From Tatlockia sp. (GTDB lineage: Bacteria > Pseudomonadota > Gammaproteobacteria > Legionellales > Legionellaceae): 24,000 nucleotides of DNA. The notes below the pieces were generated by a model. It was not told the DNA's origin, searched no databases, and saw nothing but the letters and a program-made list of their open reading frames with translations. Shown here piece after piece: positions 16,788 to 17,912 of the stretch (position 1 is its first letter; each line of letters starts with the position of its first letter). A program made the position numbers and the translations under genes. Location of the stretch: NCBI GenBank assembly GCA_041659885.1, contig JBAZXN010000003.1:53980-77979 (forward strand). Direction: 5' to 3'.

Positions 16788-17912
16788 ATGGCGATGAAAA
16801 TATTACCAATTTGGGTTGGCGCGATGATGTTAAGTGTCCTTGCTCTCTCTCAGGCAGCAACCCTGGATGCGACTTTTCCCTATGGAGAAAAACCGCAAGG
16901 CGATGTCTGTCTTTCCCAGGATGCGTTCGCAACGCCTGAAACCTTGTTAGGCTCCTGGGCTATGGTAAACGCCGTGGAATCGGATCTCCAAAATAAACTA
17001 TTACCCGCCCTGTTTACTTCAAGCAATGAGGTCGTGTATGCAGTAGGAACGGCCGCAATGGGTAATTTACTAGGCGTGCCTAATTGCGGCGGTGGATGCA
17101 ATGCCTTAAATGGTGTCTGTTTTGCCTTAAAGTTCAATAATAAACCCACCAAACCAAACTATATGATTTTCCAATCGGTTAATATTGGTGCAAACAATGA
17201 CAGTTTCGATATTTATCTGCCAGGCGGTGGTGCCGGTGCCTTTCCAGCCTATTGTGGCAAGTTTTGGGGTGAAAATTCGGCCAATTGGGATGCCCACATT
17301 GAAGACTACCAATCCTGTAGCGATTATTTTAATTACAGCTTTGTCAACTCAGCCTACAAAGTGGAATACAATGGCAAAACCTACACGGCGAAAGATACCT
17401 TAAAAAACGCCTGTGAATACGCCACAACGACCGGATTTAATCGCCAGAATTTTTCGAATGTATCGGTCGTGCCGGTAACTTGTCCCCAATCCCTAACCCA
17501 AATAACCGGTTTGAAGCTGGCTTCAGAAACCGTTGTCGGCACTAAAAACATCATCCCCTTAAACGCACTGACAGAGGATGATTTTAATAAAAACGCCGTG
17601 TTGGTTAATGAAACCACGCAAATGCAGGATTGCAAAACCCCGTCTTCCGGCTACTGCCATAATGTTAGCAATGCAGCACCAAATTACCAGGCGTCTATTT
17701 CTGCCGAATTGACCAAACCGCTTTTAAGTGGTGCTCCGCCCAGTCAAACCTATTGCCAACAAAACCCCGCGGTTTCAGGATTTTGCAGTTGGAGTAATGG
17801 TGAATCCAGTGGAAGTACCTATTGTAACCAGTCTGAAGGCACCTGCAAAAGTTGTGGGAGTACGCCCAAGTGGTGCAGCTGCGATAACGGGCATCTGGTC
17901 GGGTGTAATTAG
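16788..17912 (+). CDS. Secreted GH45 endoglucanase / expansin-like (DPBB-fold) protein with Cys-rich C-terminal module
   Basis: Signal peptide M(AM)[21 protein letters not shown] (alternative start ATG 16794 has better AAGG spacing). Core [10 protein letters not shown]...[37 protein letters not shown]...[12 protein letters not shown] resembles fungal GH45 CACYELTF...[38 protein letters not shown]...[12 protein letters not shown]. The last ~55 aa contain 8 Cys. Confidence 0.7.
   Translation: [374 protein letters not shown]

Follow-up and report, generated by a model that had tools for sequence, protein, structure and literature searches.

The open reading frame (ORF) at 16788-17912 of the 24,000-nucleotide stretch of Tatlockia sp. 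DNA analysed here (contig JBAZXN010000003.1; hereafter the window) encodes a true relative of glycoside hydrolase family 45 (GH45) by homology, fold and catalytic residues. Its catalytic domain is very probably a circular permutant of GH45 with a breakpoint near residue 32 of Humicola EGV (Cel45A), in which the segment carrying the catalytic base follows the core. We read the whole product as a Sec-exported three-part protein, consisting of a permuted subfamily-A-like GH45 domain, a spacer and a Cys-rich cellulose-anchoring module, and give this reading a probability of about 0.75. A protein with 100% identity to it is annotated as hypothetical in a Tatlockia sp. metagenome-assembled genome (MAG) from the Legionellaceae (P0001; identifiers of this form are ours), where the annotation begins at the second Met of the window ORF. 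The parts of the gene, all on the forward strand, are as follows.

16788..17912 (+), whole coding sequence, 374 amino acids, with an ATG start and a TAG stop
16788..16856 (+), predicted Sec-type signal peptide, residues 1-23, with cleavage predicted between SQA and A (hydropathy and the -3/-1 rule)
16857..16931 (+), new N-terminal segment, residues 24-48, with an FPYG motif and C41, corresponding to about EGV residues 32-57
16932..17513 (+), GH45 core, residues 49-242, about EGV 58-203 (PF02015, phmmer against the PDB, Foldseek)
17208..17210 (+), codon of D141, the catalytic-acid position (SFD, aligned to Asp121 in HFD of EGV)
17514..17609 (+), structured connector, residues 243-274, from the old GH45 C-terminus to the old N-terminus (AlphaFold2)
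17610..17705 (+), probable relocated GH45 signature, residues 275-306, about EGV 4-31 with beta-1, the base Asp and C11 (segment profiles, colinearity)
17628..17630 (+), codon of D281, the proposed catalytic base, about EGV Asp10 (conservation)
17706..17747 (+), flexible spacer, residues 307-320 (predicted local distance difference test score, pLDDT, below 50 at 315-318)
17748..17909 (+), Cys-rich tail, residues 321-374, with eight Cys (Cys pattern, recurrence of the module)

A GH45 core with the fold of subfamily A

The Pfam profile PF02015 (Glyco_hydro_45) matches residues 101-242 with 51 bits against a cutoff of 27 (E-value 2.2e-13), its coverage being limited to profile positions 84-213 of 214. 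An NCBIfam scan of the protein gave no match, and neither Expansin_C nor DPBB_1 was matched in Pfam at E-values up to 10. HMMER searches against the PDB aligned residues 110-179 with residues 87-157 of Melanocarpus Cel45A, placing SFD over HFD and including the GGG motif, and residues 204-243 with its residues 161-199, placing VTCPQSL over VQCPEEL. The alignments to EGV that the initial annotation of this DNA had drawn by eye could thus be reproduced against solved GH45 structures, and the acid Asp that it had recognized in SFD is D141, which aligns with the Asp of HFD. One of its by-eye pairings finds no significant alignment in the window protein itself, but is plausible through a relative from a Polyangiaceae-type clade (P0122) and the GH45 of Legionella longbeachae (P0096), in which the Pfam match reaches positions 41-54.

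The AlphaFold2 model, built from a 32-sequence family alignment, has a mean pLDDT of 87 and a predicted template modelling score (pTM) of 0.78, with weak regions restricted to the signal peptide (pLDDT below 50 for residues 1-22), residues 24-40 (about 60) and the spacer at 315-318. The core is modelled at a pLDDT above 90, with barrel strands at 82-90, 111-116, 125-130, 139-143 and 225-230, which we take to be beta-2 to beta-6 of EGV. A further confident strand at 275-279 (pLDDT about 90) is presumably the sixth, the barrel counting six strands with it and five without it. The connector at 243-274, with a helix at 263-268 and a strand at 271-273, is modelled at pLDDT 90-96, and comparable connectors are present in all permuted relatives. 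In the new N-terminal segment (pLDDT about 60), F30, P31 and P36 are invariant, and Y32 and G33 nearly so.

Foldseek searches of the PDB with this model returned GH45 structures of subfamily A for all of the best ten matches (probability 0.99-1.0, E-values of 8e-4 to 1e-2), namely those of Melanocarpus (PDB identifier 1L8F), a springtail (5H4U), Humicola (2ENG, 3ENG, 4ENG and 1HD5), Thielavia (5GLX and 5GLY) and Neurospora (6MVI and 6MVJ), with a probability of 1.0 for the core to 1L8F, 5H4U, 3ENG and others. These ten superimpose over 132-179 aligned columns of chains of 205-217 residues, with target-normalised TM-scores of 0.43-0.51. The sequential aligner covers only about 80% of the target, as expected if part of the fold has moved to another place in the sequence. 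No subfamily-B, subfamily-C or expansin structure was matched in the PDB, where barwin and cerato-platanin appeared at E-values of 1.8-3.4. The model predicts a six-stranded double-psi beta-barrel like that of EGV. The GH45 homology and the barrel proposed in the initial annotation are therefore supported by a significant profile match (Pfam, 51 bits) and a structural match to GH45 subfamily A (AlphaFold2, Foldseek), with no match to expansins.

Probable relocation of the catalytic signature

The sequence TRYWDCCKPSCGW is what we take to be the canonical N-terminal signature of GH45 with the catalytic base Asp10 (EGV numbering); the PROSITE-type pattern of the family is [STA]-T-R-Y-[FYW]-D-x(5)-[CA]. 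Nothing resembling this signature is present in residues 24-48, the mature N-terminus, as had been observed at the outset. From this the protein had been likened to base-less subfamily C and to expansin/loosenin-like proteins, a view that fails because the base signature appears to be relocated to residues 275-302, D281 within it is invariant and the structural matches are to subfamily A. The motif ETTQMQD281CKTPSSGY lies behind the core within these residues and fits three of the six fixed positions of the PROSITE-type pattern.

Core-matching relatives outside the window family of the Legionellales share one order of elements, that is, the core, V-x-C-P-x-x-L-T-x-V-T-G, a connector of 30-50 residues and the signature, and the signature grows progressively more canonical across these bridging relatives. 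The Polyangiaceae-type clade, the L. longbeachae GH45 and a protein from a giant-virus MAG carry TTTMQDCCKPSCSW or MTRMMDCAKPTASW at this place, and HMMER puts these motifs over residues 5-31 of GH45 chains in the PDB. The signature after the core reads ITQMQDCRSPDS or ITQMMDC in P0093, P0095 and P0109, MTRMMDCAKPTASW in P0096, and TTTM[QE]DCC[KR]P[ST]C[AS]W...FYSCD in P0122, P0104, P0127, P0132, P0108, P0114, P0134 and others.

A segment profile hidden Markov model (HMM), made from the relocated segment of 130 non-Legionella permuted proteins (group B), matches the window protein at residues 275-302 with 20.3 bits, a score that none of 3,000 shuffles reaches (maximum 14.0), and matches canonical GH45 N-terminal fragments with 22.3-26.3 bits (0 of 3,000 shuffles). 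The corresponding HMM of the Legionellales segment (residues 272-306) scores 10.6-12.8 bits on the canonical fragments (0-2 of 3,000 shuffles), and in group B lands on the relocated motif in 130 of 130 proteins (median 15.9 bits; shuffle maximum 8.3). Group B was picked by the motif itself, and we consider the resulting bias negligible: in all 118 P0122 homologs among the matches listed, the signature falls within the last 90 residues and never precedes the acid motif.

From the signal peptide to the last Cys, the window protein and the L. longbeachae GH45 align colinearly (28% identity, E-value 9e-26), and in this alignment the relocated motif of the window protein pairs with AMTRMMDCAKPTA. 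The window-family HMM likewise runs as a single domain through the motif in P0122, P0127, P0125 and P0096. Using phmmer against the PDB, P0122 could be aligned in three pieces, residues 70-156 to chain residues 65-149, 217-240 to 180-203 and 263-280 to 5-22, of which the relocated piece is the top-scoring stretch for four PDB chains; in the L. longbeachae GH45, residues 90-169 pair with 105-181 of the springtail GH45 and residues 250-311 with 21-80. The conditional E-values of such short stretches are not meaningful. The family profile places the motif at 276-289 over STRYWDCCKPSCGW (residues 5-18 of the GH45 chain) with very weak scores of 0.2-1.3 bits, and this alignment by itself is not evidence. 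The N-termini of the relatives begin at about position 39-54 of the profile and the relocated piece covers positions 5-31, the two being complementary. The two family features that the protein lacks, an N-terminal signature and the canonical chain order, would be lacking because the domain is permuted.

Conservation of the proposed catalytic pair and disulfides

Across about 90 family members, position 141 is Asp in 89 of 89 and position 281 in 87 of 87, the latter also in 98 of 98 permuted proteins found by a regular expression, and T277, Q278, M279 and Q280 are almost invariant. Since both Asp residues are strictly conserved in every permuted lineage, the simplest reading is that of a working inverting endo-beta-1,4-glucanase and not of a base-less loosener.

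C156, C282, C111, C232, C100 and C104 are invariant, and C177 (88 of 89) and C209 (87 of 88) are nearly so. We take the disulfides C11-C135, C89-C189 and C156-C167 of EGV to correspond to C282/C156, C111/C232 and C177/C209, respectively. C41 and C290 occur together, both being Cys in 67 proteins, both absent in 12 and discordant in none (Fisher p 2e-14, calculated with no phylogenetic correction). Such conservation speaks for covalent links between the relocated segment and the rest of the domain.

The Cys-rich tail

The C-terminal tail, which the initial annotation had rightly described as a novel eight-Cys region in the place where fungal GH45s carry a CBM1, spans the last 54 residues and holds five aromatic residues, Y322, F332, W335, Y345 and W362. 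Its core follows FCSW-x9-YCN-x5-C-x2-CG-x4-WC, to which Legionella adds C323, C365 and C373. The general pattern of the module is YCxW...GG..CN...C..CG...WC, with six Cys in the eukaryote-type form and eight in the Legionella tail. The tail has no match in Pfam, CBM_1 and CBM_10 included, at E-values up to 1. A model of the tail alone reaches moderate confidence (pLDDT 74.5) and has no match among PDB folds (best E-value 4.6).

The tail part of the family profile also drew in proteins that carry the same module in 2-8 tandem copies with Pro/Thr-rich linkers (P0099, P0102, P0106, P0107, P0118, P0133 and others). In P0106, three modules lie between a domain like LPMO_10 (lytic polysaccharide monooxygenase) that starts from His1 (E-value 0.001, below the cutoff) and a GH5 cellulase (1e-52). 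P0118, from the diatom Grammatophora oceanica, has two modules with DPBB_1 and Expansin_C, both below the cutoff, and bears the UniRef name "Expansin-like EG45 domain-containing protein". P0099 has five modules with a TTRYWDC/EXPB1-like domain (E-value 0.007; EXPB1_D1 below the cutoff), and the window-type homolog P0065 has two with GH45. GH5 'Cellulase' is the sole robustly identified partner domain.

An autonomous, repeatable and linker-borne module on four kinds of cellulose-active domain is how carbohydrate-binding modules (CBMs) behave, which leads us to read the tail, with no match in Pfam or the PDB, as a candidate cellulose-binding module. We rate the chances that it represents an undescribed family of such modules as about even, judging from its sequence and its partners.

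Points against the permuted reading and alternative explanations

Several results weigh against the reading given above. When the protein was de-permuted, with residues 275-312 placed before 24-275, the Pfam score was 51.7 bits against 51.8 for controls, with no gain over the native order, and the test and its controls (shuffled segment, tail in front, core only) all fell within 51.7-52.3 bits; we regard this test as too insensitive, because HMMER must bridge the poorly matching profile region 20-83. Smith-Waterman alignment of three canonical N-terminal fragments to the single window sequence gave p of about 0.07-0.2, not significant against shuffles, with the best alignment at 276-289/300 for two of the three and in the Cys-rich tail for the third. 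The short relocated stretches of P0122 and the L. longbeachae GH45 have independent E-values of 4-7 against the PDB, so these alignments are not leaned on. In the active site, R7 is replaced by Q, Y8 by M, W9 by Q and H119 by S or T, all fixed relative to EGV, and the Asp114 loop (lid) is two residues shorter; the numbering here is what we take to be that of EGV. Owing to the fixed replacements, activity, specificity or rate may differ from those of EGV. As to the tail, three of its four partner-domain matches fall below the Pfam cutoffs, and a module-only profile found nothing at E-values up to 1e-3 in 5.8 billion sequences.

The active-site substitutions, which are fixed across the entire permuted lineage, bear on an alternative in which the protein is an active enzyme of the GH45 fold with a substrate other than cellulose, such as xyloglucan, glucomannan, mixed-linkage glucan or a protist or algal wall glycan, and in which the M-Q-D / S-F-D variant of the active site reflects a changed specificity. 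Relatives in marine and giant-virus contexts with algal hosts would agree with this, as would the reported activity of GH45 enzymes towards xyloglucan as well as cellulose (PMC13084967, citing Busch 2019). Yet the only robust partner of the tail module is a GH5 'Cellulase' and the closest structures are endo-beta-1,4-glucanases, and we consider a non-cellulose substrate quite unlikely.

That the protein is instead a base-less subfamily-C or expansin/loosenin-like loosener, which does not hydrolyse or which uses an alternative base (like the Asn of PcCel45A), would account for the missing N-terminal signature, the restriction of the Pfam match to positions 84-213, the flat de-permutation scores and the substitution of several EGV active-site residues. 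We hold this to be very unlikely, given that an independent profile ties the invariant Asp of the relocated signature to canonical N-termini, that all of the significant Foldseek matches are subfamily-A hydrolases, with barwin and cerato-platanin only at E-values above 1, that there is no Expansin_C/CBM63 domain, and that the strand-pairing Cys residues are conserved.

The least probable explanation is that TTQMQDC is either what remains of another, degenerate GH45 repeat or a small domain in its own right, leaving a five-stranded barrel or one with residues 24-48 as beta-1: permutation by duplication and deletion does pass through such intermediates, and residues 24-40 are modelled at low confidence, but the strands at 271-279 are confident and contiguous with the domain (pLDDT 90-96), the pTM of 0.78 suggests one body, the invariant C282/C156 and the perfectly co-occurring C41/C290 point to covalent integration, and the segment is the exact complement of what the N-terminus lacks, with a second core kept in no relative.

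Relatives and distribution

With the permuted GH45 as the preferred reading, its spread can be considered. When 1.84 billion representative proteins were searched exhaustively in HMMER with the family profile, only 64 matched, and the window type occurs in 25 loci in the GTDB (one genome per species), all from the Legionellales, the carriers being L. maceachernii, L. quateirensis, L. bononiensis and MAGs; L. pneumophila is absent from this set. P0096 is named "endoglucanase / glycoside hydrolase family 45" in L. longbeachae, L. sainthelensi, L. cincinnatiensis and L. santicrucis. The statement in the initial annotation that GH45 has few bacterial members is outdated, as metagenomes hold about 88 window-family clusters and more than 324 related clusters of the bacterial P0122 group; one of the latter is attributed by name to a Polyangiaceae MAG, and JGI gives several of them the label GH45.

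Roughly half of the proteins in the family bear one or two extra N-terminal domains of about 110-130 residues with no Pfam match, which follow the pattern ...P.T....G....V.Y.VTN.T...C..PF.L....SC.L... (P0005, P0017, P0036, P0057, P0072 and others); P0072 and P0069 bear one further domain, and the window protein is a 'short form' that has none of these.

P0101 has a full-length counterpart, 88% identical, on the giant-virus-labelled contig GVMAG-M-3300013010-19. On this contig (IMG/VR; locus L026, 4983-7478) we note a membrane-anchored protein of about 830 residues that combines Pro/Thr repeats with a domain of the permuted GH45-like kind, VTQMQDCRSPDS. The surrounding gene products, a UvrD-like helicase, a RING finger protein, a FEN-like exonuclease and a GST, and a GC content of 26-38% fit the viral label without proving it. 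Giant viruses may therefore carry the permuted form too; a scan of viral contigs with the window family found nothing.

P0065, a 46%-identical homolog, is found on a TARA ocean scaffold (locus L027, 6001-7485) and on a 12.18-Mb contig, with a Wzy_C ligase, an avidin-family gene and two Ser/Thr-kinase-AAA_16-TPR proteins of about 1,400 residues as neighbours, and probably comes from a large-genome bacterium outside the Legionellales. The metagenomic P0109 (662 residues) ends in a stretch that by eye resembles a fungal-type CBM1, CCKGLTCFKQSSHYAQCC, which hints at a eukaryotic or eukaryote-virus origin of part of the permuted lineage.

A cross-domain history, as proposed in the initial annotation, is plausible, with the tail module in a diatom protein and relatives in a giant-virus MAG. 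A wider scenario, in which an ancient natural lineage of permuted and competent GH45 enzymes with new Cys-rich modules was exchanged among Legionellales, Polyangia-like predators, giant viruses, diatoms and other protists, and in which these enzymes serve the Legionellales for cutting amoebal cyst-wall cellulose, we regard as unlikely.

Proposed mechanism

From sequence conservation and the model, we hypothesize that the chain opens at about EGV residue 32, passes through the core with the acid D141 (SFD), and continues into a 32-residue connector. The strand TTQMQ-D281-C, which is N-terminal in canonical GH45, would then be supplied last, bringing in both the base and the Cys that bonds C156. 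A short flexible spacer would join the catalytic domain to the 54-residue, aromatic-rich module with eight Cys, which most likely anchors the enzyme to cellulose. As an inverting endo-beta-1,4-glucanase, the enzyme would use D141 to protonate the glycosidic oxygen and D281 to activate water. We infer catalytic competence, a beta-1,4-glucan substrate and cellulose binding by the tail; no biochemical data for permuted GH45 members were found in the literature. The candidate targets are amoebal cyst cellulose, plant or algal material and bacterial cellulose.

Export across the inner membrane by the Sec pathway is well supported by the predicted leader. The signal peptide, proposed earlier and called here by simple rules (hydropathy and the -3/-1 rule), has a mean Kyte-Doolittle hydropathy of 2.27 over residues 5-20, with S at -3 and A at -1, and hydrophobic leaders also open the homologs. 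Passage through the outer membrane is probably by the type II (Lsp) secretion system, a reasonable guess by analogy with other Legionella exoenzymes; the type II repertoire of Legionella has been described (PMC6617341). The window holds no operon for this system.

Genomic neighbourhood

Upstream of the gene there is one promoter-like site.

16732..16760 (+), TTGACA-17 nt-AATAAT, 11 of 12 matches (consensus match only)

It ends 28 nucleotides before the ATG, and the region holds four such sites against 2.4 expected. The GC content of the gene region (0.42-0.45) is close to the window average, and a recent foreign origin was rejected on composition.

The neighbours in the window are queA, a tgt-like ORF, secDF, an aminotransferase, a prepilin-like protein, a 937-residue orphan, prfB and lysS. 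Around the 25 related loci, neither prfB nor lysS, the 937-residue ORF or the pilin-like gene is present; the neighbourhood is not conserved, and synteny therefore offers no functional clue. The only secretion- or pilus-related item near the GH45 gene is a minor pilin/pseudopilin-like pair at 12257-13713, consisting of a 311-residue protein with a prepilin-type N-terminal methylation motif (12257-13192) and a 173-residue ORF with no Pfam match (to 13713). Directly upstream of the GH45 gene, the 937-residue ORF (13881-16694, GC 0.34-0.38) has no Pfam domain, and close to its C-terminal end there is a hydrophobic stretch, VIVANIAVALTGVGLVVVGASYLF; by its looks the product would be an orphan protein of the Legionella effector type. 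Downstream, prfB (RF2; 17975-19079) shows the classic programmed +1 frameshift, a short first ORF ending in CTT TGA C (about 18047-18053) and continuing in the frame of the listed ORF 18018-19079, so that the GH45 stop lies only about 60 nucleotides before the real start of prfB.

The ORF after queA (5733-6602) matches the Pfam TGT family over 63 residues only (profile positions 273-334 of 357, 58 bits). It encodes 289 residues where about 375 are expected, with a gap to 7046, and may be truncated, frameshifted, rearranged or an assembly error of the MAG. Traces of mobile elements are seen in a weak IS200/Y1-transposase-like ORF at 10076-10591 on the reverse strand (25.6 bits) and in a serine resolvase followed by a RhuM-family protein at 22181-23214 on the forward strand. 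At 1333-2226 on the reverse strand there is a protein with four Sel1 repeats (E-value 1e-39), a eukaryote-like repeat family that is common in Legionella.

Implications

Legionella GH45s are already known. The genome of L. longbeachae encodes cellulases (review, PMC7910863), the RefSeq annotation of the L. longbeachae type is GH45 or endoglucanase, and the homolog of L. maceachernii in the window family bears the UniRef name "Glycoside hydrolase family 45". In a study from 2024, the GH45s of Legionella formed a monophyletic clade on a very long branch (1.78 substitutions per site), nested among sequences from oribatid mites and near the GH45s of soil invertebrates, and the study suggested an animal-to-bacterium transfer (PMC13084967). 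An overlooked permutation, which leaves the domain only partly alignable, may contribute to the length of this branch. We found no paper that links GH45 or double-psi-barrel cellulases with circular permutation, most subscription journals lying outside the search. The permutation is thus apparently undescribed, which is not proof of novelty.

If the GH45 barrel is naturally permuted, the permuted form would constitute a new subfamily, and it would be clear why no more than half of these proteins is covered by profile models. Proteins that look base-less, and would otherwise be filed with expansins, probably keep the full catalytic pair, and the permuted GH45 would serve as a natural test of how far the active site of the double-psi barrel tolerates a re-threading of the chain. 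The tail is a candidate new CBM family common to bacteria and eukaryotes, found on GH5, LPMO-like, expansin-like and GH45 domains. For Legionella, the window protein represents a second, patchily distributed type of secreted GH45 in species other than L. pneumophila, and D141 and D281, together with the culturable L. maceachernii, L. quateirensis, L. bononiensis and L. longbeachae, offer handles on the role of this putative cellulase in amoebal cysts or in soil and plant life. If the enzyme is inactive, or the permutation has already been described, the finding shrinks to another annotated GH45 homolog. We consider it a modest but real surprise for specialists in carbohydrate-active enzymes; for the biology of Legionella it stays secondary for as long as activity and a phenotype await demonstration.

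Comparison with known systems

CelA of L. pneumophila, which Pearce and Cianciotto are said to have reported in 2009 as a GH5 endoglucanase secreted by the type II system, would be the precedent within the genus for a cellulase exported by this route. Like CelA, the window protein is of the Legionella exoenzyme type, with a Sec signal and beta-1,4-glucan as its (predicted) substrate; the TIM barrel of the GH5 enzyme belongs to an unrelated fold and family and the two are not homologous. Like CBM1 and CBM10, the tail is a small disulfide-bonded aromatic module that follows a GH45 domain on its C-terminal side, with a flexible linker in between, and occurs in tandem on cellulases elsewhere. Unlike CBM1 (about 36 residues, four Cys) and CBM10, it has a different Cys pattern and no Pfam or PDB match, and is a candidate binder.

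The window protein shares its barrel and an above-cutoff profile match with the subfamily-A GH45s, represented by Humicola EGV/Cel45A (PDB identifiers 2ENG, 3ENG and 4ENG), the 20K enzyme of Melanocarpus albomyces (1L8F and 1OA7) and the enzyme of Cryptopygus antarcticus (5H4U). Common to them are the QS...xFD...GGG core, the VxCPxxL strand, the acid Asp, three disulfides with counterparts and a base Asp inside the T-x-x-x-D-C-x-x-P-S-x-G-aromatic signature. In contrast to these enzymes, the window protein has the signature and beta-1 after the core, MQD for YWD, SFD for HFD, a shorter lid loop, a bacterial Sec signal and a C-terminal module other than CBM1.

The Polyangiaceae-type clade (P0122) has the permuted order, the acid xFD and the relocated signature in common with the window protein. 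It stands closer to canonical GH45, with CC and the third Cys kept, and differs in having no Cys-rich tail, Gly/Ser-rich N-terminal linkers and many lipoprotein-like signals, its HMMER E-values to the window family being only 1e-9 to 1e-4. The L. longbeachae type (CBJ12769.1 and WP_027271088.1; P0096) agrees with the window protein throughout in its parts, from the signal, core and connector to the relocated signature, spacer and Cys-rich tail. It is 28% identical to the window protein and has a more canonical signature, TRMMDCAKPTASW, and a higher-scoring Pfam match (65.6 bits, in two stretches), whereas the window type, in which additional N-terminal domains are frequent, makes up a clade of its own.

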